A stretch of DNA of 64,000 bases, taken from Cirrosporium novae-zelandiae. Lineage: Eukaryota. The position numbers and the translations under genes were made by a program. The notes below the pieces were generated by a model. The model saw only the letters and a program-made list of their open reading frames with translations. It did no database searches and was not told the DNA's origin. Location: contig JAPETS010000032.1 of assembly GCA_026023565.1 (NCBI GenBank), positions 62,001-126,000 on the forward strand, written 5' to 3'. Positions 1-55,206 of this stretch are shown in pieces. Position 1 is the first letter of the stretch, and each line of letters starts with the position of its first letter.

Positions 1-948
1 AACCCCCAAGATAAATTTTATCCCAAGAGGCTATGCGAATGGAGTGATTTCAGCCAGACTCAGAGATATTTCTTCGACAAGGCATATTCTGTTCTTCATC
101 CAGCTTCAAAGCCACCTTTACGGCCCTTCGACTCAATATCCTATATCGAGACTGCCGGACCTAAAGACTGCGTTCGACCATTTCAAAGCGAAACGTATCT
201 TCAGATATATGAAAAATACGCAGTTGAGCAACCTGTCACAAGCATTATCGCCGCTTTGGCTAAAACTCCACTTACCTTACCCTACAAGCTCGGCAACGGT
301 ATTATATTTGGAGTTTATCCCAACACTCTCGGCCATTTGAACAGGGAACTTGAAGGGCGTCAGCAGACTGAGATGAGACCTCCAAATACTAACCAGCAAT
401 ACGTCTACAAGAATGACAGTGGTCTTCAAACTCCTCTTTTTGTCATCAATTATCAAGGTCCATACGAGGTTTCGGTTGAAGATATTTCATGGGGCTTCCG
501 TGACAGTTTAAGCATCTCAAATATCATTCAACGAGACACCGTTCCGACCGACTTGAATCAAAGGTCAGCAGAGAATTCTGAAGAAGTTATAGCAGCTGTT
601 GTGACACAAGCCTTTGACGCCATGATCAACTGTGGCCTTGAATATACCTACATCATAACGGGGGAAGCGATAGTGTTCCTCCGCGTCAACGAGAATGAGC
701 CGACGACCTTATATTATCACGTATCTTTGCCCAACCAGGAGGCAGATAGATGTCATGATCCGATATTACGCATCTCTCGAACTACAATTGGGCAGGTATT
801 GGGATTTTGTCTCATGGCTTTCCAGTCCGAACAGAGAGGTGATGATTGGCAAACCTCAGCAAAGGAACAGCTAGAGAAATGGCCTATTAGTCGTCTTTTC
901 CGCCATCCTCAGGCAAGGGAACGAGGAAAGGCACCTCTGGGGTTGTAG
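1..948 (+). CDS. Spok-like (spore killer family) protein, 5'-partial; degenerate PD-(D/E)XK nuclease region, no cysteine cluster or kinase domain; possibly a pseudogene
   Basis: The frame is open from base 1 (NPQDKFYPKRLCEWSDFSQTQR...YEKYAVEQPVTSII...LGNGIIFGVYPNTL...VVTQAFDAMINCGLEYTYIITGEAIVFLRVNENEPTTLYYHVSLP...RTTIGQVLGFCLMA). These blocks match, in order, motifs I recall for Spok-like proteins (P.RL..W.DF, LGNGIIFENHP, TQ...YMI..GLEY....TGEAIVFL, TLYYH..EP, TAVGQ.LAF). TAG stop at 946-948. Confidence 0.7.
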   Translation, partial: NPQDKFYPKRLCEWSDFSQTQRYFFDKAYSVLHPASKPPLRPFDSISYIETAGPKDCVRPFQSETYLQIYEKYAVEQPVTSIIAALAKTPLTLPYKLGNGIIFGVYPNTLGHLNRELEGRQQTEMRPPNTNQQYVYKNDSGLQTPLFVINYQGPYEVSVEDISWGFRDSLSISNIIQRDTVPTDLNQRSAENSEEVIAAVVTQAFDAMINCGLEYTYIITGEAIVFLRVNENEPTTLYYHVSLPNQEADRCHDPILRISRTTIGQVLGFCLMAFQSEQRGDDWQTSAKEQLEKWPISRLFRHPQARERGKAPLGL

Positions 949-1552
949 TTCAAGGCAAGAGTCCTTCTCTTCCGTCAAGGTCGTTTAGCTGAGACTGCGA
1001 CAAGGTGGAATGGCAGGATATAGGCTGTAATTGTCCGGCATTCATTATTGTTATCAAAAAGCTTTTTGACAGGAATCCTGGTTGTCTGTATTTTAATTAA
1101 TAATTTCTAGTTTTGTTCCTATCCTTCAAGCTTTATTGCTGTAGATCATAGAAATAACCGGAATTTCAAGTGATACAGCTAGCCCTTGTCTGTAATAATT
1201 CTGGGATCTAATAAGTGTGTTATTTTGTAACAATGTAGAATTAATTCTATGAAAAATATGCTATTAATTAACGGAACATCAATAACCCTGCAAGAAACCA
1301 CAATCGTACTATGATAGACTATCAGGTGAAATAATCCCTGGTACGGTAGGGCTACTCCACACGGAGTTTAACTACTTCAAGTAACCGCTAGGCGATGTTT
1401 AGTATAGTGACTGCCTCATATGGTTAGAGGAAGATTTTAATTTGAGTGTGTACTAGGGATTATTTGGCTTGACACCATAGCTACCTACGCTTAGTTTAGA
1501 GAGCATTCTATTTTACTTACCAACACTTTCAGCTATTTAGCCATCACTATTA

Positions 1553-2535
1553 ATGCCAATAATTTATTGTCCGCTTCCTCCAGGACCGACAAGGCGCCCT
1601 CGTCTAGTTCGTCCGCTGAACCATGGATCTCTCAAACTAGAAAAGGTCTTCTCATTTCTCTCCGAAGAAGAGAAAACGACCCCTCCGACACTACAGACGT
1701 GGAAGGAAATTCAAACCCCAAGGCTCAGACGTTATCCTGACTGCGAGAAAATATTGATTCAAGAGCTGATCGATGATCGTGGGATGGATGGCTACGTTTT
1801 TAAGGTGGACATGGGTGGTACTGGTCCATATGTGCTAAAAAATTGTACTAAGTTTCGACTAAAACATCGCCTCAAATGTAATGCCGACTTTATCTTAGTT
1901 CAAGCAAACATTTCCGTCACGACCACCTTTTATCTGGCCCTTCTATAGAGAATGCCTTTATTATTCTCGATCAGAAGCAGTGAATGCAGGTGTGTTGAAC
2001 GGTCGAGCATTACCAACAGGCCCTCCCCCAATACCATACACACCAGAAGACATGAATCGATTTTTACGATCCTTTCTCTTCCGACTATGAAATGCAAGAC
2101 AGTAGAGAGTTCGCACATCCCGAATTGATCCAGCAGCAGCAGCAGCAGCAGCACGATCCCCAGATTAACAACATCTTATCGGACATGGATGGCAGCTATG
2201 GGTGGCTAAGACTAAACCGCGATGACGTCAACACCCTACTCCGCAGATGGGATCTAGATCTGGGCTATGACATGAATGGAAGATATTTCCAAGAGAACCC
2301 ATTTGCAATTGTGAAGAAATATGTTAGATCTGACGCAACACTGGATTATGTCAAATTATCGAAATGGATTAACCTGGCTCATTACATGGGATTCAAGCTT
2401 AGTGTATTTCACGAAAAGAATTGGGTTGGTGAGGGAGTTCTAGTTGATGGCGCCGATGTCCAAACATTGCCATTCTGTGGGAGGTGGAAGGAGGTCGCTA
2501 CGTACTACACGCGTCTTCGGAAAAGATTTCAATGA
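1553..2535 (+). pseudogene. FTA2-type fungal kinase-like gene with two apparent +1 frameshifts
   Basis: Exon 1 encodes GMDGYVFKV...YVLK. A putative intron runs about 1845-1898, then FKQ...WPFYREC...TPEDMNRFLRSF. A frame switch near 2075 leads to YGWLRL...AIVKKYV...NWVGEGVLVDGAD. Joining the pieces needs an extra base in the A run near 1837-1842 and another near 2075. Confidence 0.55.
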
Positions 2536-11062: not shown

Positions 11063-13515
11063 TTATACAGCTAGCCCAGCCGCCGGTTGGGCCAACTGAC
11101 AGGCTTCACACAATACGCCCGTAAGTTAGTATTCTTTATTCAATAGCTGCAAACTCAATGTTGCGTACCTTTGCCTCCCGCGCTGCTTCAATCTGTAATT
11201 TGAAATCTCGCCACAGGTCCTTCATTTGCCTGGTACGTTCCATCGTGTCGACCACTTCATTTGCATACCTGAACCGTTTTTTACGATTCCAACCCTCCCT
11301 TTCCATTGTCTTATCGGCGGTGAGATGCCCCTCACCATCGAGCCAATCCAAGACCCATGAGTTGAGATGGTGTTTCCAATGTGTAAGGGTGTGGGTCATT
11401 TCTGCGTTCGCCTTACAATGTCTGAGAAATACGGTCAGCACTCAACTTTGACTTCAGGAAATAGAATATACCGTCCAACCAAGAACTCCTGATTCTCAGG
11501 GGGCAGGGCATTCCCTTCGCTGTCATAGCTCTGCCTGTCCTCTGCAATTTCATCGTCATCTTCATCCTCATCGTCGGTAACCTCCTCTAGTGAATCTCGA
11601 TGATATGCTTTACCGCGGAAATTTATTGCAAGCCCTGCCGGATGGCCCTTTCTCCCACATGCTTGGCAATGCTGGTCAAATTTTTCTGCCTGGTCGGTAT
11701 CCCTGATAATCATATCCGGACGAGCCTTGAGCGCCTTGATGAAATCCGCTTTCCAGGCTGATGAAGAGAATTTCGAACCGGCAAAGCCTCTGGCAACATC
11801 GTCTACTTTGTTAAACGCAAGGCGATAGACTTGGTCATCACGAGCAAACGCCGGGTTCAGCTTGTTCTGAACCATCCATTCCACAACATCTTTGAAGTAT
11901 TCTTCCGTCTTCTTTCGGGACTGGAGGGAAAATTCAAAGGGGAGTTCTGTGGGAACCCCAAGATGGTCCTCTTCATCATCAACGATAAAGTCATCGTCTT
12001 CTTGCTCCTCCCCGTCTGGAAGTAGTTCCCGATCTCCGACCGCTTCGGCTGCATCGGATTGTAGATTAGTATCGTCTGTCTCTCCCGTATGGTCGGAATG
12101 GTCCGGAATTCCGTCATGATCGGAACACTCCCCGAGATGTAAAGCTGGAATCTCGACCTTCTGACCAGCACGGCGCTTCCTAAGCAGTTCGAGCTGTGCT
12201 TTCCTCTTCTCCTTCTGATCCCTGCGGCTACGACTGGTAGTATCAATCCCAGAATCTGTATATTATAATTTAGTACCAGGCTTGGCTATACGTAAATTAC
12301 GAATGCGAATATTTAAAGCCTCACTGCTTACCTGAATCTTGTAAATCTAGAAGGTCCTCTTTGAGGTCTTCCACCTCTTGTCTACGTTTTGAGTTTAGTG
12401 GGGAACTGAGCTGAGCTCGAGGTTTCAAGTTTCGCCCAGAGACAACCTCGAGGCTGTCAGAACTATCGGACTCAGTAAGAGGTTCTGGGATCTTTGGTCG
12501 AATTCGTCTTCTTATTCGCCTCGTAGCAGAAGAGATTGGCATATCTTCGTCACTGCTTGAATGTGAAGATCCTAGTAGAGATTGACTTTGTGGATGTCTA
12601 ATGATCCTTCGCCGTTTGGAAGGGGAGCCAATGTCGTCATCCTCGCCGTTCACAACTATAGCTTCGGGCTGTGTTTGCAGCCGGCTAGATCTTCGCCTCT
12701 TGGAAGGGGGCACAACTTCGTAATTGGACTCATCCAATTCACTGATCAACAATGCGGATACGGGCTGTACGCGAGTGCGAGAACGACTCGTGGTCTTCCC
12801 CTTGGGGGAATTTTTACGGGGTTGACGCCCTTTGCCCTTTTTGTTTTTGTTTTTCTTTTCATTTTTCAATTTTTTCTTCGGCTGGGATCTACTGCTGTCG
12901 GATTTATCATGGCTGCTAATAACAGCTGGCTGACCTCTTCTTTTCCTAGGCTGTGACGATGATATATGATCCAGCTCTTCATTGTCATCAGAACTTTCAA
13001 GTGCCATTGGATATATCTCGCCTTCGAAAGGTCCAAGGGAGGGGATAATTGCAGCTTGATGTTGGTCATCATCACTGTCGCTGTCGTCTAAGTAGGCCTC
13101 ATTACCAAAACCCATTTGCCGACCTGTACCAACCCATATTGTGAATATTGATTACGAATAATGATTGCGACAAATAATTGTCGCAGTCATTTTGCAGGAC
13201 TGGGGAAGAATATTTCATGAACTTACTGCTCCGGCGACCAAGAAACCCAAACTGAGACGACCTCATTGGTGTAGCTAAAGCATTCGCAGAAGTGTCTGTT
13301 AAATCTGCGCTTGGTTTCGTAGATGAACTTCCTAGGTCTTCTCCTTTCGTTTTTCCTTTCTTTATAGGTATGGGAGAGCTATCAACCTTCACCGAAGCTG
13401 TGCGCCCTTGAATTTGAGATTCATCTTTTGCAGCTTGTGGGGAGGATGAAGGGATAGGTGTAAAGGCCAGACGGGTCTGCCGCTTTCTACCTTGGCGTTT
13501 ATTTTTGGAAACCAT
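11063..13515 (-). CDS. DUF4211 domain protein (CCDC82-like), multi-exon
   Basis: MVSKNKRQG start at 13515 and a long Ser/Arg/acidic disordered N-terminus. The C-terminal domain has EWMVQNKLNPAF, SSSAWKADF..AL.ARP, CQACGRKGHPA and HWKHHLNSWV. The 3' end (11063-11071) depends on the acceptor chosen. Confidence 0.75.
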
Positions 13516-18528: not shown

Positions 18529-19033
18529 CGCATCATGGAATCATTGTATCGAATACTTCAATGATGTTAAAATTGAGATGTGAACTTTCTATTTTCACCT
18601 TAGATCCGTTGGTTTCGTTACTCGTCCCTTCGGATCCGATAACCCCGAGCTTTCATACCATCCGGGGCCCCGGATATAGAAGCTTGGCGTTCAGGTGGGA
18701 TGATGAATTGTTATGAGCTACGGAGCTTTTACAACCTCTCTATCAAAGCCCTAGAGGCCGAGGGGACCTTGAGCTGCTCACGAGAATTGCTCGTGAAAGC
18801 AAGGAGTGATTTCCAGAAAAAGGAATTCATCAGAAATCATACCACCAAGTCTATAGCATGTGAATGACATGTGTAAATTCCTCGTAAATGTACTCATCAT
18901 CCGATATCAATCATTTACACACATCCTCACGTATATATATATCTGCTGCTTGGTCTGCTGTAAGGTACAAGTCTCTTTATCCGCATTCCATTTTCAGATT
19001 CAATTGGAGTATGTGAACATTTGAGTTGCAAAC

Positions 19034-20748
19034 ATGCCGCACTTTACAAGCCACGAGCGGAATAGTAGTAGCAGCAGCACGGAACATGCCTATCTCTCCC
19101 GCTCGCGCCGTGATCCCGATCAGACCAATGTCTATCTTGTCGGTGGCGGGATAGCCTCTTTGGCCGCTGCAACCCATTTCATCCACGATGCCAAGGTCCC
19201 TGCATCTCAAATCCATATTCTTGAGTCTCTAGCAGTTCCTGGAGGCTCTATGGATGGAGCAGGTGATACTTCTCAAGGGTACATCCTTCGAGGCGGTCGA
19301 ATGCTGAATTACAGTTATGGCTGCCTCTATGATCTCCTTGACCTGATCCCGTCTTTGACAGAGCCGAACAAAACTGTCCTAAAAGAAATACAAGATTACA
19401 ACAAGGAACATCAAACCAATGCACAAGCCAGGGTTGTTGCCTCAGGCTCCAACGGGCCAGAAAGAGTGAACGTAACTAGAATGGGCTTTAGCAACAGAGA
19501 CAGGGTAGATATGTTGAAGATGCTTTATGCAAGCGAAAAGAGCCTAGGCGTCAAGAAAATTGAAGATTGCTTTAGAAAGGAGTTCTTTCAAACAAACTTC
19601 TGGTACATGTGGGCTACAACGTAAGCCTTGAAGTCGCTCCCTTGCTATGAGAATGTTAGTTGATCTAACAAGCGTCTAGATTCGCTTTCAATCCATGGCA
19701 TGGTGCAGTTGAATTCCGTAGATACTTGCACCGATTCCTTCACGAGTTCCCCAGAATAAATACTCTAGCTGGCATAGATCGGACCCCATACAACCAATTT
19801 GACAGCATCATCCTACCAATGACAAGATTTCTTGAAGACAAGGGGACTGATTTTCAATACAACACTAGAGTCACCGGCATAACTTTCTCTGAAACAAAGC
19901 CGACTAGGCCGATAGAAATCCAGATGATCCAGTCTGGTGTCCCAAAGAAAGTCATTGTAAAAGAAACCGACCTTGTATTTGTGACTCCTGGATCCATGAC
20001 ATCCGAATCTTCCATAGGCACAAACGATACGGCTCCTTGTTTCGATCCAGATACCTCGGATGGTACTTGGGCACTCTGGAAAAATATGGCTGAAGGCAGA
20101 CCAGAATTTGGCAACCCATCAAATTTCTGTGAGAGAACGCAAGAGTCCAACTGGGAGTCCTTTACTGTCACATCGTTCGATCCAGAGTTCCTCAATCGAT
20201 ATATCGAGTTTAGTCACAATGAGCCTGGAACTGGTGCACTTGTTACCTTCAAAGATAGCAACTGGTTCATGAGCATAGTGGTGCCGCGCCAACCACATTT
20301 CATTAATCAGCCGGAAAATGTCAACGTTTTCTGGGGATATGGACTCTTTACTGATCGCGAAGGCAACTATGTCAAGAAACCAATGTCAGAATGCACCGGC
20401 AAGGAGATCATGACTGAGCTCCTGGGACATCTGAACTTCCCATTGCATCCAATCTTGGATAATTCGATCACCAGGCCATGTATGATGCCTTATATTACAT
20501 CACAGTTTCTGACCCGCAGGATCGAGGATCGTCCGAAAGTCATGCCAAAGGGGACAACGAACCTGGCGCTTCTAGGGCAATTTGTTGAAATTCCGGAAGA
20601 CACGGTCTTCACTGTGGAGTATAGTGTCCGGGCAGCGCAGATGGCAGTGTTTGAATTAATGGGATTGAAAAAGAAGCCAAAGCCTTTGTACAAGGGTGAG
20701 CATCATGTAGGAATTTTGATCCAAGCAACGGAGAAGTTGTTATCCTAG
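19034..20748 (+). CDS. Oleate hydratase (myosin-cross-reactive antigen family FAD enzyme), 551 aa, one intron 19621-19679
   Basis: Rossmann motif VYLVGGGIASLAAA, then GGSMDG, GYILRGGRML, TNFWYMWATTFAFNPWH, RTPYNQFDS, MMPYITSQF and NLALLGQFVE..DTVFTVEYSVRAA. The GTAAGC...CTAAC...TAG intron restores the frame. Confidence 0.93.
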
Positions 20749-24382: not shown

Positions 24383-25985
24383 ATGGCGAAGAGAGCAGCA
24401 GATGAATCTGAAGAGTTGGTCGGTGCTCTAAAAGGTGGAGATCGACCAGAAAATACCCCACCTCCCAATGAAGCAGAGGATTTCGAGGACGAGTTTGAGG
24501 ATGAATTTGAGAGTGATTCTGATGTTGTAGAGGCGGGCGTAGATGGAAGACCTGATGAGGAGAGAGAAGCAGAAGAGCAAAGGGGTACGTGGTTTATACC
24601 AGTAGCATTGTGGGCTTTTCACTGCTTGAAGATATGAAACTTTTGCTAATCTCCTTTCAGATGCAATGGACATGGATGAGCAGGTCTTCATGCCAGGAAG
24701 AACGAAGCTTGCACCTGGCGAGACATTATCACCCGACCCTTCTACCTATGAAATGCTACATACATTTACTACTACCTGGCCATGCCTATCTTTCGATATT
24801 GTACCCGACCAGCTAGGCAATGAGAGGAAAACCTTTCCCGCAACAGTATATGCGGTTGCAGGGACTCAAGCAGCAATGGGGAAAGAAAATGAAAATTCCT
24901 TAATGGTTATGAAGCTCAGCGGTCTCAGCAGAATGGATCATGAAGAAGAAGAATCTGATGACGACGATGATGAATATGATGAAGAACCCGGTCTAGATGC
25001 TAAAAATATTCCCCTACCCTCCACAGCGAATCGAGTACGAGTACATCAATTGCCCCCCAAAGACTCCTCCAAACCACCTATGACTCTAACCGCAACAATG
25101 ACCGAGTCATCAGATATTTTCATCCACGACATAACCCCTCAGCTCACCTCCTTCGACAACCCAGGAACAATTATTACCCCTAAACAGCAAAAAGCCCTCC
25201 ACACCATTCGCTCCCACAGATCTGAAGGCTATGCCTTGGACTGGTCTCCACTTTCACCCATAGGCAAACTTCTCACTGGAGACAACGACGGCAAGATTTT
25301 CATAACGACCCGAAAAGAAGGTGGCACCTTTTCCACAGACAACAAACCGTTCACAGGTCATTCTAGCAGTGTTGAAGACCTGCAATGGTCCCCCAATGAG
25401 CGCAATGTATTTTCCTCCTGTAGTAGTGATGGCACAGTTAAGATTTGGGACGCGCGCTCCAACTCCCGAAAATGTCAGGTCGATGTCCAGGTCAGCAACA
25501 CAGATGTAAATGTACTTTCCTGGTCTAATAAAACCGCCCATTTACTCGCCACTGGTGCCGATGATGGTCAATGGGCCGTCTGGGACCTCCGACAATGGAA
25601 ACCCAGTAGTGCTGGTTCCCGCTCTCCGACTCCATCACCCGTGGCATCATTCGATTTCCATAAAGAGCAAATCACCAGCATCGAATGGAATCCAAATGAT
25701 GATAGTATTATTGCGGTTGCGGCAGGAGATAATACCCTTACGTTGTGGGATTTGGCTGTGGAATTTGATGATGAGGAGAGCAAAGATACTGCGGGTGTGC
25801 AAGACGTTCCACCACAGTTGTTGTTTGTGCATTATATGGAGATGGTTAAGGAGTGTCATTGGCATAGGCAAATTCCAGGAACGGTGATGGGGACGGGAGG
25901 TGGAGGGTTTGGGTAAGCTTTTCGATTCCAGAGCATTTTTACCGACTAACTTTTATGAAGGGTATTCAAAACAATCAGTGTTTAG
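24383..25985 (+). CDS. RRB1: Ribosome assembly WD40 protein Rrb1 (GRWD1)
   Basis: MAKRAADE start. Motifs PDPSTYEMLH...WPCLSFDI, EGYALDWS, GHSSSVEDLQWSP and VPPQLLFVH, ending GF G|VFKTISV*. Introns at 24585-24660 and 25913-25960. Confidence 0.93.
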
Positions 25986-39017: not shown

Positions 39018-42000
39018 ATGACACCGAACGTCGAGGTTAAAGATACTGTCATGGACAGTTGTGCTGTGGAAAGCCCGTCCGCGGATGAGTCCTCAAGGGT
39101 ACCTGGAGGTGAATAAGCTTTCGTTGTTGAACTGATCATATCTCATGTTATTATGTCTAATGTTTCCACCTAGAACCAGAACAGGCTCGTGAAGCAGCGA
39201 AACCTCTAAATAATGGCACCACTAAGCCCACCCATCCACCACCCAAGACAGACAAGCCCCGCCCTCATGTTTGCATAACCTGTTTAAGGTCGTTCGCTCG
39301 ACTAGAACATCTAAAGCGTCACGAGCGATCTCATACAAAGGAGAAACCTTTTGAATGTGAACATTGCACACGACGGTTTGCCAGGCGAGACCTTCTTCTC
39401 CGTCATCAGCAAAAGTTGCATGTTAATGCAACCCCGCCCTCTCGACCTAGAAATGGAAGGCGAGAAAGTGCTGCCGGGGTTACTAACGGAAGAGTAAGAA
39501 AGAATTCGATGGCTTCAACCCCCGGTCCAGTGACATCGAGCATGAGACCACGAGCAAATACAATCAATGTGGATCCTGCAACGCTCGGTCTGGTTGCTGC
39601 TGCGAATGAAAACGTCAATCGAACACAGCACCTAAACATGTCTCATGGATATCGTCCAGGGTTTTCTGGTTTCAATTATCATGATATACCGGTCACAAAT
39701 GGGGAGCATAATTTAGGGCACAGCCTGCCAAAACTAGAAACTCACGGCCTAAATATTGATATGAGTGGTGGCCTTCGTACAGCTCCTCCGACATATGACA
39801 GCGACTTTGATGCTGCATTACTCTATTATAACCATGAAAATACAATCAACCCCGCTCAGCTTCATTTCAATGACTCGCCTCATTCAATGTCCGTGGATTC
39901 TCCTATGCCCCCGTACAATATATTCGGCGGAATGACTACAGCCATGCTGGAGGATGATACGCCATATGATTGGATCAACAGTAAATTCGAATGGCCAAGT
40001 GGAATTGATAATCAAATACCCTTTGGCCAGAATAATGAGCAAGTCTTTGATAGCTCGTCACCCTCTGGCATGGACACGACTAGCCCGGGTGGGATGAGTG
40101 ATGGCATGCTGGATGGCTCGAATGGTCTTCCCGCAACTTCATCGATGTGGATACCTGCTGTCTCAACCGCTCAGACGCCAAGTCCATTCTCAATAGATGT
40201 TTCGGGATTGACCCATTGCACTCCGCCTCCTGGGACGATCTCTCCTAAATCACTACAGGCCACCAACGGATACCCAGATACATACCACTCGCCCCCGCCA
40301 ATGTCTCTCATGACTCCCGCTAATGTACCGTCCACCATGTCCCAGCAATTCTCATGGCCTAATGTCATCAATCCAGATTCTCCCAGTACTGCCACCTCGG
40401 CCTCATTCAGTGGGAGTAGCCATCGACACAGTTCCGTCACATCAGTCTCAGCTGATTCGATTACAGATGCAACCCGACAAGCACTTCTTCAAACCCTGTC
40501 AAAGCCTAGTTCCTTCCAACACACAATGAGAAAGTATTCTCAGCCAGCCATCAGCTCTCCGCTATCAGACTCATTTGCTGGAAGACCAAGAAGCGCCAGT
40601 GGAATCATCATGTCTTTGCCCAGTACATTTGATTTGCAACGATACGTTTCAGCTTATATACAATACTTCCATCCCCATATGCCTTTCCTCCATATTCCAA
40701 CCTTGTCCTTTGACTCCCCGGCCTATACAAGCGACCTACGTGCTTTGAACGGACACCCATCATTCTCTTCCAGTGGGCTCGTTGGTGGGGGTGGGTGTCT
40801 GATTTTATCTATGGCAGCAATTGGTGCTTTGTATGAATTTGATCAACCCGCTTCAAGCCAACTATTTGAAGCTGCCAAAAGAATGCTTCAACTATATTTG
40901 GAGGAGCGTCGCAAAGTTGACATGGTCAATGCTACCAGTGGTGGAACAGTCAAAACTGATAATTCGCCACTCCAGAACACGCCATTATGGCTTGTGCAGG
41001 CGATGCTATTGAATGTCATCTATGGGCATAATTGCGGTGATAAGACGACGTCCGAGATCGCTACTAGCCACTGTGCTGCTCTAGTTAGCCTTGCTAGGGC
41101 GGCAGAATTGCCCCGTGTTATACCACCTGAAGAATTGCCACCGATGTCTCACCCGAATCATCGATTTGGGTCTATCTCTGGCTTAGATTCAGCTATGGGG
41201 GGAATTAATATGAATTCTGATGCATGGAATTGTTGTGGGCAGCAACCAATTTCGGATGACCAGCGAGAATGGTATACCTGGAAAACACAGGAAGAGAGAA
41301 AACGCACCTTATACGCCGTTTTTATACTTTCAAGCCTGCTGGTATCGGCATATAATCTGCCACCTGCGCTCACTAATTCCGAGATACTTCTACAGCTACC
41401 CTGCGACGAAGAATTGTGGGCTGCAGAGAATGCTCAGGAATGGAGGGAAAAGGGAGGGGCGGAGCTGACCAACGATAGCTCGGTTAGTTTTGCTAGTGCG
41501 CTTGGTTATCTTATTACTGCAAGTAGTAGACTGCAGCAACATTCTGTGACCCGGCCGTCTGATTCTCAACCCTTTGGCTCTTGCCTGAGATCCGAGAATA
41601 TACCTGATAGTGAGCTGAAACCTTCGACATATGGTTGTCTGGTCCTCATCAATGCCCTCAATAATTATATCTGGGAGACTCGCCAGCGTTTCATGGGAAG
41701 CCAATGGACAGCTCAGGAGATGGATTCGTTGCGTGCCCATTTTGAACCGGCATTGAAAGCCTGGCAGGCAGCCTGGGCAAGTAATCCCCAGCATCACTGC
41801 AGCCGGCCGAATCCCTTTGGAATGGGACCGTTGTCCGCTGACTGCATCCCCCTGCTGGACCTTGCATATATACGATTGTACGTCAACCTTGGGCGCTCAA
41901 AGGAGGCATTTTGGAGACGGGACTTTGACGGGATGGCTAAGGAATTGGCAAGAGGTGCCGAGGTGGCCTCACGCATTGATCAGTCCCCCCAAACCAGCGG

Positions 42001-42746
42001 CTCTCCTGATTCTTTGAGTTCTCCTGGTAACAAGAATTCTTCGCCCCGAGGAGGCACAAGTCCTGCGGCCGGTGAGATGCTAAGAACGCCAACTCAAGAG
42101 CAGCAAAACCCTACCATTATTTCAAATCAAGCTTCACAACCTTGCCAAAAACGGGAACGCCATCTACGAAGAGCAGCTCTTTATGCCATTGACTCGCTAT
42201 CAATGTCCGATAAATTTGGCATCACCTTTGCCGAATTCACGTCTCGTGAACTCCCAATTCAATCAGCTATGTGTGCATTTGACTGCGCTCAAGTATTGGC
42301 AGAATGGGTAACTACCGTTCAAGAAAGAGTAGGCCGTCACTGTGGCATACTGGGGAAAGATGATATCGACTACAGCGCAGTACCAAGTTGCATGTTTCTA
42401 GACGAGTCAGATGTTCAACTGCTAGAGAAAATCCAGGAATACCTGGCAAGTGCGGATACGAAGATGACATATGAAAGTATAAGACTGGGCACGGGTGCTG
42501 CACTTCTCGCAATGCATAGTGTTCCGAGTGCATATGCGGAAGGATTTGGGAGTAAAATTTTGAAGGTGACAGCGCATATGCTTGAGAAAGCTGCTGTCTG
42601 GCCAGGTATAAATCATTCACTAGCAACTTCCAAAGACGGTTCACTAATGGATAATAGTTACGAAACTTATGGCACACTCCCTTGAAGTGCAAGCAACTCA
42701 TGTGAAGGAAAGAGCGGAAAAGTCGGTTTTGCTGGAATACCAGTAG
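39018..42746 (+). CDS. amdX: C2H2 zinc-finger transcription factor with fungal TF domain, AmdX/Adr1 type
   Basis: Two fingers, DKPRPHVCITCLRSFARLEHLKRHERSHTKEKPFECEHCTRRFARRDLLLRHQQKLH, lie upstream of the ORF-track start. Later motifs are YFHPHMPFLHIPT, EERKRTLYAVFILS and LPCDEELW.A. Introns at 39109-39173 and 42606-42657. Confidence 0.88.
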
Positions 42747-44229
42747 CTAACGCAATTTATGAACGCCATAACGATGAGATTATTCTTAACAAAACCCTGT
42801 ACAGATTAGGACGCGACTGTGCCATCCGTCCCTTTTGCTCTCGCGAGTCGAGGGTGACCACTCATTCAAGACATTGTATTCATGAAAATGGTTATGGATC
42901 AAATAATATACTTTTGTGCTGTTGGATATGCGAATTGGGATGGGGAGGGGTTAGCGATTTGATGTACCAAAAAGAATTGTGTTCCATGTTATTATCAGCC
43001 TGTTACCATCAGACATTGGCAGAAACTGGGAGGTATTTGTTTTATGGGTTTCGGCTCTTGGGCCAAGAAAAGGAAGATTCCAGGGATTGTATGGATTTTG
43101 AGGAGGACTTGCAATGACGGGAGGAAAAAAGAGGCGTTTTGGATTGAAGGAAACCCAAAGCAGTGGGTTTTGATATCAACCAGGCGCATCGAGAACCATG
43201 TTGTGGATGAAATGATATGATATGATTGACTAGGATAAGAATCAATTATCTCTGTGTCTGTTCTCATGGAAAGGTGTACAGTCCAGTAGACCAGATAGAG
43301 TAGTACTAAGCACATGGGTTGGTCATTGATTGGCGTGATTGGCTTATGCATTTGGTGCACTTTGGGCACCTTGGGGCTTCGGTTAAAGAACCGAAGACCA
43401 AGAACGGACTAGCAGGGGGAAGCTGACGGATGAGGCTAAAGGCTGAGTCGGTTTTCGCGTAATTTAGTAAGTTTTAGGGTGTTATTTGCTAAATTTGTCT
43501 TGGCCGTCAAGGTTCACCTCCATTTCAACACCATCCGTCATCCTTGGGAGACATTGGAAGACATTGGTTGACCTTGGAAATTCCTTGGCCAGTTGCTTCG
43601 TACGGGCATTGCCTCCGACATTTTCCCTTCTACCACTCTCCACTTCTTTAGCACTTTATTTTTTTTTCTCTCTTTTTTTTACTTCTCCCTTTTCTTTCAT
43701 AATCCGAGCATATTCACTATCCTGAATTTCTTGTGGAATCTCCCTCGTTTCTGTTCAGAATTGAAAAATCGGGGTGGCCAAATGTCGAGTTCGAGTTAGT
43801 CGGTCATAGGGTTTGGATATTTAAATGGTTCGTAATTCGAAACCCCACCTCTCAAAATATCCCTTGGCGTCGCAAGCAAGACTGACTTCGAACAGGAAAT
43901 AATTAGACCTTCGATTGTTTCCCTGTAAAAAGTATACAACTCGAAACCTCTAACCATCTCCAAATCACTCCTTCGATCTACAAAACAACTGTGCCATAAT
44001 ATCCTTCGCGTCGAGTTCACATTGACCCGAACACGGTTCTGGCCTCTCAGTTCCAAAGCTGGCGGGCTAACGCATATAATCTGTATGCTTCAAAAACAGA
44101 CCTTTCAAATTCGGGTGCGGGAAATAACAGACTGGGGAATCGGGACGTGAAGGACCGCTCCAGCGTGGGAATAATATATACATACAACTACTGTCGGAAC
44201 AAAGACATTGAAAGATCCAATCAGACATC

Positions 44230-47200
44230 ATGGCTTGGAGTCACCTTGAAATCAACAAGCCACATTTGGCCTACATCATTCTAGGCGGCTTCACCAGCCT
44301 GTTTATGCTATGTTCTCTTTTCGTCAAAGAGAAGATGTACATAGGTGAAGCCACAGTAGCAAGCATTTGTGGAATTATTTTTGGTCCCCATGCCGCCAAC
44401 CTCTTCAACCCAGAATCCTGGGGAAATGTGGATGAAATTACTCTCGAATGCTCTCGAATTGTCCTGGTGGTACAATGTTTTGCCGTTGGTGTGGAATTGC
44501 CCAAATCCTATATGGAGAGGCATTGGAAATCAGTGACGTTTTTATTGGTACCTGTCATGACCTACGGCTGGTTATCTACAAGCCTCTTCATTTGGTGGAT
44601 GATTAGGCCTCTAACTTGGCTTGAAAGCCTAGCCTGCGCTGCCTGCGTAACTGCAACAGATCCTGTCCTGGCCTCCTCTGTGGTTGGTAAAGGAAAATTT
44701 GCAAAACGTGTACCCAAACATCTCCGAGATTTATTGTCAGCCGAATCCGGATGTAACGATGGCATGGCATTTCCCTTCATCTATCTATCGGTTTACCTTA
44801 TCGACTATAATTTAAATGCCAAACAAGTCACCTTTCACTGGATTCTCTATACCATCTTGTACGAATGTATATTTGGTGCTATTTATGGGTTTGTCGTTGG
44901 GTATGTAGGAAGACACGCAATCAAGTATGCTGAAGAAAAAGGGCTTATTGACCGGGAAAGCTTCCTCGTGTTCTATTTTGTCCTAGCCCTATTTTGTGCA
45001 GGTTCTGGAAGTATCCTTGGGGTCGATGACCTCCTCGTCGGATTCTCTGCCGGTGTCGGGTTCAGTAATGACGGGTGGTTCACCAAGAAGACCGAAGAAT
45101 CCCATGTCTCCAACGTTATTGATCTTCTACTGAACTTGGCTTATTTTGTTTACCTGGGCTCCATCATTCCCTGGAACGAGTACAACATGCCTGAGTGGGG
45201 AATCACACCATGGAGATTGGTTATTATCGCTATTTTCGTTATCCTATTTCGGCGAATACCAATCATGCTAGCCCTGAAGCCAATCATCCCAGATGTAAAG
45301 AACTGGAGAGAGGCTTTGTTTGCTGGACATTTTGGGCCTATTGGCGTGGGGGCAATTTTTGCTGCCATTCTTACTAGGGCAGAACTCGAAGGCAACGGCG
45401 CGGAACCGACGGATGGGCTCCCTGGAAAAAGTAATGAGGAATGGCTTCTTATCAGGGTGCTCTGGCCTATCACCACCTTTTTGGTCATTTCTTCCATTAT
45501 TGTTCATGGATCATCCATTGCCGTCTTCACCCTCGGGAAACGTATCAACACCCTGGCATTCACCTTGTCGTATACTCGGGGGCCTGAAGAGGGCCAATCT
45601 TGGATGGATCGATTACCACGGTTTGATACTAAATCAAGAACGCTATCTCTTCGTAAATCACAGGACTTGTCGATTGATTTTTCCGACGAGAAATTACCCC
45701 AATTCCCTGCTGAAGTCTTGCCAAGGAATTTCTTAAGAAGACAAAGGGAGGAAGATTATTCAACCCCCAACAGTCGAGCATCTAGTCAGAGGCCAATATC
45801 TCGAAAAAAGAAGAGATGGGATGAAGGACGAGGGCCAGGAGGGCCAATTAGTAAATCTGCTATTACCCCTCAGAGGATACAATCACCAACGGAAGACCAA
45901 TCTCTTCCGGAGCTTTCCGAAAAGACCACGGAGAGTCCAGATGATAGAGAAGAACCTCCTGATGGGGTCCAAATGCGTGCAGAGGCGGAAGAGCATGAAA
46001 AAGAAGATCAAAGAAGATCAAAACAGGTACATGAACCTGCAATTGAAGCTTATCAAGAAGGTAAGCACCTGATTATTGAAGACGAGGAAGGAAACGTTCT
46101 AGGTCAGGAAGATGTGAGAGGTGAAGGTGAGCTTGATAAACGTAGGCGTGTCGAACAGGAAGCAGAGGCTCTTGAAAAAGAGGATAGTGGAGAACATGCG
46201 AAAGGCCTGTTCCATCCTCACGAAAAGACTGAAGGAGATGAAATCGAAAAGGCTGTAGGAGATGCTCTGCGTCATCCCAATCATCCATATCGAAACTTGC
46301 GACAAAAACTTGGAGAATGGCATTTCGGCGGTAGACCCAGAGAGGAGAACGGAACACCAGCCGTGCAGAAACCCCCAGAGCAGAAGCGTGGCCCCGCTTA
46401 TGCTTACCAGTATGGGGATACCATTATCGTCGAGGACGAAGATGGCGAAGTCATTAAGAAATATAACATGCCTCGTGGAGAGAGGGGAACGTCTGGCGGA
46501 GCCGAACTCGAACCAGCTGAAAACAAGGGTAGCGGCCCCGCCAAACCACATGGCTTCCAGCGCCTAGGAACCTTTATCGGTCTCGGACCCAGAGACGAAA
46601 GTTATGATGCTGAAGTCGCTGGGCCAAGCAGACCGGCACGCAGAGGCCGGAAACTAGAGTCCGATGACGAAGACGACGACCCTAGGCTCCGTTTTGTGGA
46701 TGCCGGTGGACGAAGAATGAGCAAAGCAGAATTCATCCGTCAAATCCAAGCCATGGACCCGAAAGCTCGTGCCGAGTTCGCAAGTAAAAGCAACATCCCC
46801 GAAGCCATCAAACACGAAGCCCGTGAAGCCGCTCGCAAAGCTTCCCCCAACGAAGTAGCGAAAGGAAAAGGTGAGCGTAGCGACTCCTCCGACACCCTTC
46901 AGGAAAGCCGCGGCCGACCAAGGGAGGAACGTCGTCCACCGTCACCCGGATCAGGGGCAGCACGGGATGAAAACGACACCGCCGCTCCCGAAGATGGTTC
47001 AGACCTCCCATCCAGATATAGCATGAGTGAGTCCCTCGCGCGCTTCGACCCAGGCCACGAAACAGCAGCCCAACGGCGCCGTCGACAAGCCTCTGAACAC
47101 CGCCGGAACACATCCTCCCCAGTCAACCGCATCGCCTCACCCTCATCGGCCGACACTACCGATGATAGCATCACTCGTAGCGGTGGAAAACTAGTCTCCC

Positions 47201-47463
47201 TCACTAAAGTAGAGAGTCACATGGCCGAGGCAGGCGAAACAGAACCAGAGCGCAGACGACGGCTTGCTGCGCTGGGAAAGAGTGCTGAGGATAGCGATAG
47301 CGATGATGATGGTGGAGAGAGGAAGCCTCCAGAAGTTGGCAGGAGGAGGCCTGTGGAAGAGCCTAGCGGCAGCGGTGGCGTCGCTGGGACAGCTAGTCGA
47401 GTCACACAACGTGTGAGGGGGATTAGGTTTGCGCCTGAGGTGGAGAGGAGGTCGAGGAGGTAG
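44230..47463 (+). CDS. NHA1: Plasma-membrane Na+(K+)/H+ antiporter, CPA1 family
   Basis: Single 1077-aa ORF with MAWSHL...LFMLCSLFVKE, CVTATDPVLASSVVGKGKFA, LSAESGCNDG, GVDDLL, GHFGPIGVGA and IIVHGSS, then a long hydrophilic tail. Confidence 0.95.
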   Translation: MAWSHLEINKPHLAYIILGGFTSLFMLCSLFVKEKMYIGEATVASICGIIFGPHAANLFNPESWGNVDEITLECSRIVLVVQCFAVGVELPKSYMERHWKSVTFLLVPVMTYGWLSTSLFIWWMIRPLTWLESLACAACVTATDPVLASSVVGKGKFAKRVPKHLRDLLSAESGCNDGMAFPFIYLSVYLIDYNLNAKQVTFHWILYTILYECIFGAIYGFVVGYVGRHAIKYAEEKGLIDRESFLVFYFVLALFCAGSGSILGVDDLLVGFSAGVGFSNDGWFTKKTEESHVSNVIDLLLNLAYFVYLGSIIPWNEYNMPEWGITPWRLVIIAIFVILFRRIPIMLALKPIIPDVKNWREALFAGHFGPIGVGAIFAAILTRAELEGNGAEPTDGLPGKSNEEWLLIRVLWPITTFLVISSIIVHGSSIAVFTLGKRINTLAFTLSYTRGPEEGQSWMDRLPRFDTKSRTLSLRKSQDLSIDFSDEKLPQFPAEVLPRNFLRRQREEDYSTPNSRASSQRPISRKKKRWDEGRGPGGPISKSAITPQRIQSPTEDQSLPELSEKTTESPDDREEPPDGVQMRAEAEEHEKEDQRRSKQVHEPAIEAYQEGKHLIIEDEEGNVLGQEDVRGEGELDKRRRVEQEAEALEKEDSGEHAKGLFHPHEKTEGDEIEKAVGDALRHPNHPYRNLRQKLGEWHFGGRPREENGTPAVQKPPEQKRGPAYAYQYGDTIIVEDEDGEVIKKYNMPRGERGTSGGAELEPAENKGSGPAKPHGFQRLGTFIGLGPRDESYDAEVAGPSRPARRGRKLESDDEDDDPRLRFVDAGGRRMSKAEFIRQIQAMDPKARAEFASKSNIPEAIKHEAREAARKASPNEVAKGKGERSDSSDTLQESRGRPREERRPPSPGSGAARDENDTAAPEDGSDLPSRYSMSESLARFDPGHETAAQRRRRQASEHRRNTSSPVNRIASPSSADTTDDSITRSGGKLVSLTKVESHMAEAGETEPERRRRLAALGKSAEDSDSDDDGGERKPPEVGRRRPVEEPSGSGGVAGTASRVTQRVRGIRFAPEVERRSRR

Positions 47464-48743: not shown

Positions 48744-50855
48744 TCACACTTTCCCCTTCCCCTTGTCTTTCCCATGTTTATGATGATACGTATGTATATT
48801 AACCCCTCTCAACAACCTCACGCTACCCCAGACGCTCTCACTGACTCGAATTGGCAACTTCCTCCCCTTCAGACACTGATCGACAAGCCACAGGCCCACA
48901 ACGAACTCGTCTCTCGTTAAGTAGTGCGCCTCCTGTCGATTCACTAGTTCCCAGATTTCCTCCAGTATGTCGGGTGGGAGACGTGAGCGCGTCCAGATGT
49001 CCGCGACGACGAGGTTTTGGACCAGGGTTGCGGGGTCGGTGGATGCCGAGGTCAGACGCAGGTCTGGAGAGGAGGGGACAAGGAGGCCTTTATTTGCGGC
49101 CCAGACGCCCTCGTAGCGTTTCCGTTCGCGCTCGGTAATTTCGTCACGCCAGCGCTTGCGCGCGCCTTCGTGGTGTTTTTTGTGGTGTCGCCGGACGAGG
49201 TGTTTGCGCCCACGGCGCTTGGGGCTTGTGCGGCTGTCTGAGTCGGAGGATCTGGGGCGCTCCGTGCGGAGAGTGGTGCGGAGGTTTGTTTGTTTTGGGG
49301 GCGAGGGCGTCCGTGAGGGGATTGGGGTCGGCGCGCTGAAGAAGAAGTGGGAGCGGGAGTGGCGGCGCTGTTGGAGGGGGGGGTTTGATGGTGGTGGTAG
49401 GGGGGAGGTCATCCGAGAGGGGGCGCGGGACGAGGCGAGGGAGGATGCTACGATGGCGTTGGCCATTGAGTCGATGAGTTTGGCTTTTTCTAGAGCTGGA
49501 GCGCGGCCGGTGCGGGACAGAGATGAGGGGGGCCAAGACGGTTGAGACCGTGACTGGGGACGCGATATTGGTGCTGCTCGGTGGACTTTGGGTTTGGGAG
49601 GAGGTGATGGACTTCGTGGAAAGTGGGTTTGAGCGTCTTGCCAGTCTGAGGAGGATTCGGAGCTGCTAGGTGAAGGCGTGCGGTCGACACTCGTTCGTAC
49701 AGGGACAGAATCATGGAACGAGGGGAACGGCGTGCTGTCCGGTGGTTTAATGGGTCGATCTGAATCCGAGTCCAAAGCTGCAGTGGATGGCGCAGTTGTA
49801 TTTGCGTTACGGGGTGGTGGGAGCCTAGGGGGGTTCCTGATGCTGAACTCCATGGCTTTATTAGAGACCCTGGATGGACTTGGGCTTGGTGATTCCATTG
49901 CACGAGGAGAGGAAGCCTGTTTCGATCGGCGAGAGCTTTGGCTATTTAGAAGTTGGCTTCCAGAAAAATGTGGACTTGATATTTCAGTTACAGCTCCAGG
50001 GGTATTATGTCTCTGAGCAAATAAGTTTCTACCACCGGACGTCGTTCCATCGAGAGTAGCTCTGGAAGGTGCACGACTCTGAGGCGTGATGACATATTCT
50101 AGGGATGGTTTTCCGCTTGAATGAGGTCTGACGGGCTTTGGAGAGGCTATGGTTGATAACCTGTCTGGTGTTGGCTGTTGTGACCATGTATCAGGCGACC
50201 GAGCCCCAGTTCTGCTAGATCTTCCTTCAAAGGCATTTACCAGACTTCTTGTAGAGGGAATCGGAGATTCATCGTTGAATGTATTTTGTCGTGGTCGACC
50301 CATACGGACCGATGCATTAGTAGATGGTGATGTCGGGGTAGCTCTAGCAGCAGCAAGAGTTGCAGCTATCCCTGAGTACGACTTTGTAGATATATTGGAC
50401 ATATCCGACAACATTGTACTACTCCTTTTCCTCCTTTGGGGCGTCGTCAAAGTAGTTCCAGCTCCCCTAAGCTCCTCCAAAGCCCTTAATTTTTCTTGTG
50501 TAGGCGATTTCCCTCCATCTTGAGCTGACAAGGGCCTGGAGAGATGCCGATGAGATCGAGCATTTCCAGTCCCTAATTGCCCTGTCCCAACTTTTGTCGC
50601 AGCAGCCAAAGCCGGACTGACCTGAACATGTGGATTTGCTTTTGGAGATCCAACCTTGGTGGCAGCGGCTAAAGCTGCATTTATTCCATTCTGTGCATTC
50701 GGACTTGTGGTTGTTTCAGTTATCGGCCGTTGCTGGAAGGCCAGTGAAGCGCCACGCAGGGCAGCCGCACGTCGGTCGTCATTCTGGGATTTACTGTCGA
50801 CAAAGGTTCGATATGTCAACGTCGAATCAGCTCTGGGTCGAACTGCAGCGGACAT
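48744..50855 (-). CDS. IRS4: Irs4/Tax4-like EH-domain protein
   Basis: AALRGASLAF at the N-terminus and MANAIVASSLASSRA. C-terminal HHEG.RKRWRDEITERERKRYEGVWAANKG, IWTRSRLP..ILEEIWELV, EFVVGLWLVDQCLKGRKLP.RVSESVW. Confidence 0.85.
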   Translation of the reverse strand: MSAAVRPRADSTLTYRTFVDSKSQNDDRRAAALRGASLAFQQRPITETTTSPNAQNGINAALAAATKVGSPKANPHVQVSPALAAATKVGTGQLGTGNARSHRHLSRPLSAQDGGKSPTQEKLRALEELRGAGTTLTTPQRRKRSSTMLSDMSNISTKSYSGIAATLAAARATPTSPSTNASVRMGRPRQNTFNDESPIPSTRSLVNAFEGRSSRTGARSPDTWSQQPTPDRLSTIASPKPVRPHSSGKPSLEYVITPQSRAPSRATLDGTTSGGRNLFAQRHNTPGAVTEISSPHFSGSQLLNSQSSRRSKQASSPRAMESPSPSPSRVSNKAMEFSIRNPPRLPPPRNANTTAPSTAALDSDSDRPIKPPDSTPFPSFHDSVPVRTSVDRTPSPSSSESSSDWQDAQTHFPRSPSPPPKPKVHRAAPISRPQSRSQPSWPPSSLSRTGRAPALEKAKLIDSMANAIVASSLASSRAPSRMTSPLPPPSNPPLQQRRHSRSHFFFSAPTPIPSRTPSPPKQTNLRTTLRTERPRSSDSDSRTSPKRRGRKHLVRRHHKKHHEGARKRWRDEITERERKRYEGVWAANKGLLVPSSPDLRLTSASTDPATLVQNLVVADIWTRSRLPPDILEEIWELVNRQEAHYLTRDEFVVGLWLVDQCLKGRKLPIRVSESVWGSVRLLRGVNIHTYHHKHGKDKGKGKV

Positions 50856-51170
50856 ATGGCCATGAGGTTACCATGGAACACGGAGGGGAAAAGGCAATTT
50901 GGATTGTGAATCAAAGATGGTTAAGTTTCTTGATCATCGGCTGAGATGACGGGCAAGGGGCCGAGGATTCGGAAGGGAAGCGTCCAAAGTGTAGAATAAG
51001 GTGTCAATTAACTAAATGAGTTTAAAATGATAACGTAAAAGAATAGTTTGTCCAGAGGTACTTGAGAGGAGTTATTTTGATGAAAGCAGGGAGCCGGCAA
51101 CTGGAGAATCCGAAGAAATGAAAGTGGTGAGTACTGTAGGTAAAACGGAGGTAAACATAGGGCGTCAGCA

Positions 51171-54500: not shown

Positions 54501-55206
54501 CACACATTGTCGTAGCACCGTCTACGTCTCAGGAACGGATAAGAGGTATCAGGGAGGAGATTAAATGGTAAGTCAGCCAATCACCCATATTACATACATG
54601 CACAGATATCATCCATCTCATTCCCCCCTCCTTCCCCTCCTCTCACAATTCAGCAACCCACAACAACCCAACCAAATCAACCGATAAGGGAAAAAAAAGG
54701 AACATTCACCATCAAGCTAACACCCAACCTCTCTCCTCTCTTCACAGGCGACGGCAACTACCCCGAACTGTGAATCCCGATTGGATCAACCAGAGCTGGA
54801 ACGAGGGAACATTGCTGGATGAAGAGCGTGAGCTATTTTACCCCACCCCACCTCCACCTCACACGACACAACAACACAATAAAGTACAACATAACAACAA
54901 TACCCCCCCCCCCCCCTAACCAAAAATAAATTAAAACTAAAACTAAAACCCCCACCACACTACACTACTCGAGTACACCCTCCCATGCCTCTGTCTCTGT
55001 CTCTCCAACTCCTTCTTCTGCCCCTCTCCCCATCCATCCATCCACACATACCATAATTACCATGACTGATACCTTGGTACTTTACCTTACCTCCCACGTT
55101 CCTGTACCCCAACCCCTCTTCAACCCCCCACCACCACCTCAAAACAACCAAAAAAAAAACTTTTACTAAATATTGAAAAAAAAACATAGGTTTCGCGATC
55201 GTTTAA
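51570..55206 (+). CDS. lig4: DNA ligase IV (NHEJ)
   Basis: Adenylation motif EEKLDGER, then LDGEM, EGLVLK, WMKVKPEY and RFPRF, plus two BRCT-like regions (WIFDC; WINQSW). Introns at 51668-51723, 54568-54747 and 54828-55189. Ends RFAIV*. Confidence 0.95.

Follow-up and report, generated by a model that had tools for sequence, protein, structure and literature searches.

A putative truncated Spok paralog lacking the kinase and the nuclease catalytic residues in Cirrosporium novae-zelandiae

The stretch of DNA analyzed here (64,000 nucleotides of Cirrosporium novae-zelandiae contig JAPETS010000032.1, positions 62,001 to 126,000, hereafter the window) opens inside a gene on its plus strand. As the sequence-only reading had described, frame 1 runs uninterrupted from base 1 until the TAG at 946-948 (315 codons), and the two strings quoted by that reading, TNQQYVY and INYQGPYEV, are found in the translation, at nucleotides 388 to 408 and 445 to 471. 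The complete product, a protein of 382 amino acids (P0002) from a contig of 346,971 nt, is present in the protein collection and is 100% identical across the part that falls within the window, which places the start of the gene 67 codons 5' of it. The part contained in the window, residues 68 to 382, takes in the last part of the N-terminal domain and a complete PD-(D/E)XK-like domain. The 24 bases starting at the stop codon occur only once within the window. A DNA contig of run X1 spans bases 1 to 1262 with 0 differences, and it may be the source assembly and thus not an independent confirmation.

The spacer that separates the stop from the next gene is 604 bases long and has no second copy within the window. 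It holds a MITE-like inverted repeat at 1322-1472 (23-nt arms, 83% complementary and 105 nt apart), a second copy of which was not found in the window either. In run X1, the summed contig depth climbs from approximately 357 to values of 655-2129 over positions 1189-1458, and loose ends lie at 1237-1355; a short stretch of the spacer is therefore probably multicopy in the genome. The next gene downstream (1553-2535, plus strand) apparently has several exons, the first of them with a kinase-like glycine-rich stretch, and shows a weak similarity to PF13095 (FTA2), with an E value of 0.057 and 13.5 bits, under the cutoff of 30.2 bits. From 11438 to 63999, the window is a neighborhood of housekeeping genes. 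No transposase or DUF3435 domain was detected in 43 window ORFs of at least 120 amino acids (Pfam scans of 18 and 25 ORFs), and nothing suggests the presence of a Starship on the downstream side (63 kb).

Table 1. Features of the window, with positions counted from its first base.
Feature	Position	Strand	Evidence
Last 315 codons (residues 68-382) of P0002	1-945	+	Open frame, 100% P0002 match, N-half profile, AF2 model, fold matches
F170-G171-V172-Y173 in place of family F-(E/D)-N-H	307-318	+	Family alignment
N198-Q-Q-Y201 in place of family D-Q-x-C	391-402	+	Family alignment
N217-Y218-Q219-G-P-Y222-E223 in place of family E-Y-K-(P/A)-P-H-K	448-468	+	Family alignment
Q270-A-F-D-A274 in place of family QxxxY (Y to A)	607-621	+	Family alignment
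TAG stop in the linker after the nuclease-like domain	946-948	+	Sequence; tblastn
A+T-rich spacer (36.9% G+C) without cysteine-cluster or kinase remnant	949-1552	.	tblastn, profile, composition
DUF4211	11438-12262	-	Pfam scan
MCRA hydratase, two ORF pieces	19025-20745	+	Pfam scan
RBBP4/CAF1C-like WD40 protein	24630-25913	+	Pfam scan
C2H2 and fungal-specific transcription factor	39161-42682	+	Pfam scan
Nha1	44212-47460	+	Pfam scan
EH-domain protein	48747-50867	-	Pfam scan
DNA ligase IV	51710-54568	+	Pfam scan
RRP5, running off the window end	61051-63999	-	Pfam scan

P0002 bears the precomputed Pfam label PF27653.1, as does every relative listed by our searches, and PF27653 is SPOK2_N, the "Spore killer 2 N-terminal domain" (name taken from Atlas). 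Together with the match between the window ORF and a profile covering the N-terminal half of family members (E = 6.8e-98), this label upholds the Spok homology that had been proposed from the letters of the sequence. An hmmscan of P0001 and P0002 returned 0 families, because the Pfam set used had no PF27653 model. A phmmer search against 1.84 billion representatives gave 1138 relatives at E values of 1e-3 or below, 645 at 1e-10 or below and 99 at 1e-30 or below. The 150 best are mostly proteins of 700 to 800 amino acids, and the query always aligned to their first 360 to 450 residues. The nearest relatives, P0005 (722 amino acids) and P0003 (346 amino acids), share 48 to 50% identity with P0002 and 78% with one another; P0003 is probably a fragment, since its contig measures only 1213 nt.

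Beyond the aligned portion, a C-x3-C-x(12-14)-C-x5-H cluster was found in 121 of the 160 aligned sequences, and positions 644 to 728 of the family profile align with catalytic loops from protein kinases of known structure (CDC7, E = 5.3e-7). In the portion of PMC6660238 available to us, SPOK3 is described as a coiled coil at the N terminus, then a domain of unknown function and a PD-(D/E)XK domain, with the nuclease motif spanning residues 219 to 240 and a QxxxY at 294-298, followed in the C-terminal half by a C-x3-C-x13-C-x5-H cluster and a kinase with catalytic D667. The architecture of the full-length relatives agrees with this description, which also matches the domain account (a nuclease for killing, a cysteine cluster and a kinase for resistance) on which the sequence-only reading was built. 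No Spok-named or Podospora entry appeared among the 120 listed of 502 family-profile matches, a screen of the SPOK3 coordinates (D219, E238, K240, Q294, Y298, and D667) gave no match among 161 and then 274 proteins, and no literature mention was found for six locus tags of named profile matches. We base the assignment to the Spok family on the Pfam label, the score against the profile and the shared architecture, and the resemblance of the window gene to its relatives is far beyond chance. Another short sequence, P0004 from Podospora didyma, of the Sordariales (332 amino acids, on a contig of 900,033 nt), has an intact D/E/K triad and ends inside the nuclease-like domain, and it is probably another truncated copy of the family.

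The residues expected at the active site were scored in the columns of the 160-sequence family alignment, which includes P0002. In the F-(E/D)-N-H columns, the other 159 sequences carry E (90) or D (23), N (112) and H (122). The column of the first catalytic aspartate, occupied by N198 in P0002, has D in 137 of 160 sequences, and that of Y201 has C in 136 of 160. In the block of residues 217 to 223 the conserved residues are equally dominant (E in 142, Y in 141, K in 149, H in 138, and K in 149 of 160). By alignment and spacing, Q219 occupies the position of the lysine that corresponds to K240 of SPOK3, the distance of 21 residues between N198 and Q219 being the same as that between 219 and 240 in the SPOK3 description of PMC6660238. 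In the QxxxY columns, the glutamine (155 of 160) is kept as Q270, while the tyrosine (124 of 160) is A274 in P0002. P0002 is the sole sequence of the 160 with all three triad columns replaced (D by N198, E by N217, and K by Q219), and all of its signature acidic and basic residues are swapped for uncharged or opposite-charge ones. The loss of the catalytic D, E and K that had been read from the sequence is therefore borne out, with N and N-Y-Q falling in the D and E-Y-K columns, and the family counterpart was also recovered, since the nearest relatives P0003 and P0005 read DQICVY...EYKPPHKL at the aligned places.

According to the accessible parts of the two reports, a single K240A change in SPOK3 abolishes killing (PMC6660238), and so does the equivalent change of K247 in SPOK1 (PMC9972908). 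By comparison of sequences, we strongly infer that P0002 has lost nuclease activity. Repeat-induced point mutation (RIP) was considered as the cause of the replacements and rejected. The values of the gene (TpA/ApT of 0.70 and (CpA+TpG)/(ApC+GpT) of 1.27) equal the background of the window; besides, the changes from E to N and from K to Q need transversions.

The C-terminal half is missing. In tblastn searches with 8 full-length relatives, the alignments stop at 882-981, and nothing under an E value of 0.3 was found outside bases 1 to 981 in the 64 kb. A profile of the C-terminal half (118 sequences) run with all filters off over the six-frame translations of the same 64 kb gave a best E value of 2. 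Neither the alignment nor the six frames of the window provided a cysteine cluster for P0002, and so the absence of both the cluster and the kinase, as claimed earlier, holds over the whole window. Full-length relatives run approximately 340 residues beyond the position of the P0002 stop. Because homology reaches the stop and only the 604-base spacer follows, these 340 or so codons were deleted or replaced and not merely cut off by a nonsense mutation. The gene at 1553-2535 was tried as a split-off Spok kinase and discarded, as its matches to the C-half profile had E values of 6.8 or worse.

The AF2 model of P0002 has a mean pLDDT of 88.6 and a pTM of 0.88, a high confidence that is partly owed to the family alignment and not to the P0002 sequence alone. 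A comparison of the model to 48,161 chains with VIA-align found BpuSI (Z of 9.6), DrdV (7.3) and the HsdR subunits of EcoR124I (6.3) and Vibrio vulnificus (6.2), followed by many restriction or Holliday-junction nucleases. Foldseek against the PDB returned no match at an E value of 0.001 or below, with HsdR and EcoRI among the weak rows only. The HsdR of V. vulnificus is the best HHpred match of SPOK3 in the text of Vogan et al. available to us (PMC6660238). The model of P0002 is thus predicted to fold as a PD-(D/E)XK nuclease. It shares this fold with the nuclease domains of type I HsdR and of the type IIG/IIL enzymes BpuSI and DrdV over 124 to 151 aligned residues, although identity is only 5 to 14% and P0002 has neither motor nor methylase domains nor the catalytic residues. 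The model also contains a long helix at residues 9 to 36, 5' of the window and known from P0002 only. A homodimer prediction scored 0.12 and 0.18, against a mark of 0.32.

The reference point for this family is SPOK1-4 of Podospora, in which toxin and antidote reside in one protein. They have the PF27653 domain in common with P0002, as well as a PD-(D/E)XK-like fold with HsdR among the best matches, and the P0002 model shows a long N-terminal helix. Unlike them, P0002 has no cysteine cluster or kinase, its D, E and K read N, N and Q, and the tyrosine of QxxxY is an alanine, so that four defining Spok features (catalytic triad, QxxxY tyrosine, cysteine cluster, and kinase) are absent. Also unlike SPOK1-4, the gene is placed amid housekeeping genes, with 63 kb downstream free of Starship or transposon genes. 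The window gene is a member of the SPOK2_N family and probably not a functional Spok driver.

The published construct that most resembles it is an engineered one. As far as the available text goes, Spok3(1-490), in which the kinase and the cysteine cluster are missing, shows toxicity both in Podospora and in yeast, and this toxicity disappears with K240A (PMC6660238, PMC12693581). The double variant Spok3(1-490) K240A (Vogan et al. 2019, PMC6660238) has, like P0002, the N-terminal domains only and the lysine gone, whereas P0002 is natural, ends earlier (in the linker, at the equivalent of approximately residue 400) and has lost all signature residues. Conversely, the part of PMC6660238 at hand describes SpokPsi1 as a copy with the killing part gone and the resistance part kept, carrying stop codons and a transposon. 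P0002 is the reverse, with the killing half kept, the resistance half gone and the frame uninterrupted, and both are degenerate family members minus one functional half. The accessible part of PMC12693581 reports that four of six tested Fusarium homologs had no effect in yeast. A natural form of Spok that is kinase-less, nuclease-dead and uninterrupted was not found described in the accessible portions of the Spok, meiotic-drive and Podospora literature, and a search for Spok in Lecanoromycetes gave only "radial spoke" text (PMC6652019).

Three relatives, from Penicillium concentricum (P0036), Sclerophora amabilis (P0049) and Malbranchea cinnamomea (P0054), are like P0002 kinase-less SPOK2_N proteins, of 369 to 389 amino acids, with 31 to 37% identity to it. 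They are not contig-end fragments, since their contigs measure from 33 kb to 10.9 Mb. Their triads (DGK, NDK and YEQ, respectively) are altered, but in contrast to P0002, none has all three residues replaced. The scattered position of these three and of P0002 on the tree indicates that the losses were independent. The idea of a conserved clade made up of dead short copies was rejected, because short or altered members are scattered across the tree. Of the relatives whose C-terminal tail is short, 7 of 26 have an altered triad, versus 8 of 112 of those with a long tail (one-sided Fisher P = 0.009). In this count, D/E swaps were taken as intact, sequences with gaps in the triad were dropped and 14 with intermediate tails were left out; some gene models of the short-tail class come from short contigs and may be fragments or calls derived from pseudogenes.

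One subclade (P0034, P0036, P0041, P0054, P0069, P0088, P0093, P0103, P0122, and P0131) contains many variant triads, e.g., NGR, EGK, YEK and DQK, and several of its members have the long tail that bears the kinase. These long-tailed members may be resistance-only or otherwise repurposed full-length forms.

Taken on its sequence, P0002 is best explained as a truncated member of the fungal Spok family, a paralog specific to its lineage, which probably has no means of cutting DNA, and so of killing, or of phosphorylating, and so of conferring resistance. The gene retains its predicted N-terminal helix, the domain that follows and a second domain of restriction-endonuclease type, and it lacks the cysteine cluster and the kinase; its active site would have been erased while the fold stayed under relaxed constraint. 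In the published parts cited above, a kinase-less SPOK3 is toxic unless its lysine is mutated, which makes the loss of the active site a probable condition for the persistence of a kinase-less copy; given the toxicity of Spok3(1-490), a natural copy of this kind should survive only if its nuclease is inactive or if another copy protects it. The distribution of altered triads between the two tail classes is consistent with this.

We favor, with about even confidence, the view that P0002 is a retained noncatalytic protein (a pseudonuclease) under relaxed purifying selection rather than a dead pseudogene. This view is based on the replacements clustering in the active site and sparing the residues of the fold, and on the open frame. 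In the 46 columns whose conservation reaches at least 80%, P0002 deviates at 9 and its sister P0005 at none (0/46). The deviations affect 6 of the 8 columns within residues 198 to 223 versus 3 of the 38 elsewhere (hypergeometric P = 2.2e-4), a test that presumes that the 8 columns of the block are comparable to the other 38. Outside the catalytic block, the private departures of P0002 are 3 of 39, 15 of 83 and 20 of 90 in bins of falling conservation, against 1, 5 and 10 for P0005 in the same bins, i.e., 2 to 3 times as many in P0002. The rise of departures with falling conservation is what purifying selection would predict of these sequences.

The competing view that survives best, a real possibility to which we give less credit than to a retained protein, is that of a young pseudogene, in which the 3' half was deleted and the rest is decaying neutrally, with the frame still open for lack of time and no protein or role. 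Several results speak for it. Tajima relative-rate tests against the sisters P0005 and P0003 gave 51 to 61 unique changes in P0002 versus 21 to 31 (P values of 0.0002 to 0.03 in 14 of 14 comparisons), and this branch, approximately twice as fast as the sister lineage, indicates that the constraint on P0002 has been relaxed; P0002 may even have lost its function altogether in recent times. In the tree, P0002 is a singleton on a long branch, and no close ortholog was found among the relatives obtained, the nearest being those at 48 to 50% identity, a fact that we also count against retention. Its codon log-odds do favor the reading frame (+0.10, versus -0.23 and -0.41 in the other two frames), but the in-frame value falls below that of each of the 8 housekeeping ORFs compared (0.13 to 0.29). 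Pseudogenized Spok copies are reported in many genomes in the part of PMC12693581 available and in Podospora by that of PMC6660238 (SpokPsi1). An open frame would also survive for some time by chance: 315 simulated codons remained open in 522, 260, 160, 58 and 19 of 1000 runs after 10, 20, 27, 40 and 55 neutral replacements (16% after 27), figures that are upper bounds because only substitutions were simulated and indels ignored.

However, neutral decay should fall evenly on the conserved columns, and the concentration of deviations in the catalytic block is the opposite of this; the changes outside the block still avoid conserved columns. Neither a stop nor a frameshift interrupts the 382 codons of P0002, there is no RIP signature, and the gene has a clean end in the linker. 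The fall of open frames in the simulation to 160 of 1000 runs after 27 neutral replacements and 19 after 55 also counts in favor of retention. Of the two outcomes that the sequence-only reading had left side by side, a relic and a domesticated noncatalytic protein, these tests lean toward the second, insofar as the fold seems to have stayed under constraint after the site was lost, without settling the choice.

What a retained protein might do is more speculative. The dead N-terminal half could have been kept for binding DNA or the N-terminal helix of a partner, as a decoy or dominant-negative form, as a kinase-independent suppressor of Spok killers or as a co-opted DNA-binding protein, a proposal that we regard as rather unlikely.

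A quite improbable alternative is that another Spok gene provides the resistance half in trans, or a distant exon does so in cis, the gene being part of a working two-gene or multicopy system. Such systems have precedents in the portions of the literature available: 63 of the 95 Fusarium genomes with any Spok homolog have more than one (PMC12693581), and wild-type Spok3 acts in trans to suppress the toxicity of its truncated form (PMC6660238). Nevertheless, a copy in which D, E and K have all been exchanged poses no threat that would call for protection; in addition, no remnant of the kinase or the cysteine cluster was detected in the 63 kb downstream, the gene caller behind P0002 ended the gene at the same stop, and the C-half profile finds no match in the neighbor at 1553-2535 (best relevant E value of 6.8). 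That P0002 is still an active toxin or enzyme by means of other residues, or through a nonnucleolytic activity of the fold, is barely credible, for although the fold is predicted with high confidence and the variant-triad members P0041, P0088, P0093 and P0122 keep the kinase, hinting that the site tolerates some variation, every signature charged residue has been exchanged, the single lysine change in SPOK3 or SPOK1 is already enough to abolish killing (in the text seen of PMC6660238 and PMC9972908), and a toxic kinase-less copy should not persist.

Spok genes are the best-understood single-gene toxin-antidote meiotic drivers in fungi, and the way in which they decay or are tamed is a less settled stage of their life cycle. 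The decayed copies described in the accessible literature keep the resistance half, as SpokPsi1 does, or carry stops, and P0002 would represent the opposite route, in which the resistance half is deleted and the killing site disappears one residue after another under a preserved fold. It fits the experimental rule that a SPOK without its kinase is lethal unless its nuclease is dead and can be seen as a natural counterpart of Spok3(1-490) K240A. If it is a young pseudogene, it would be an ordinary by-product of Spok turnover. As a retained noncatalytic protein, it is a candidate for a suppressor or binding role of dead N-terminal halves, and if the decoy reading were true, the kinase-less relatives with altered triads would mark a recurrent route from a selfish toxin-antidote gene to a host-side pseudoenzyme.
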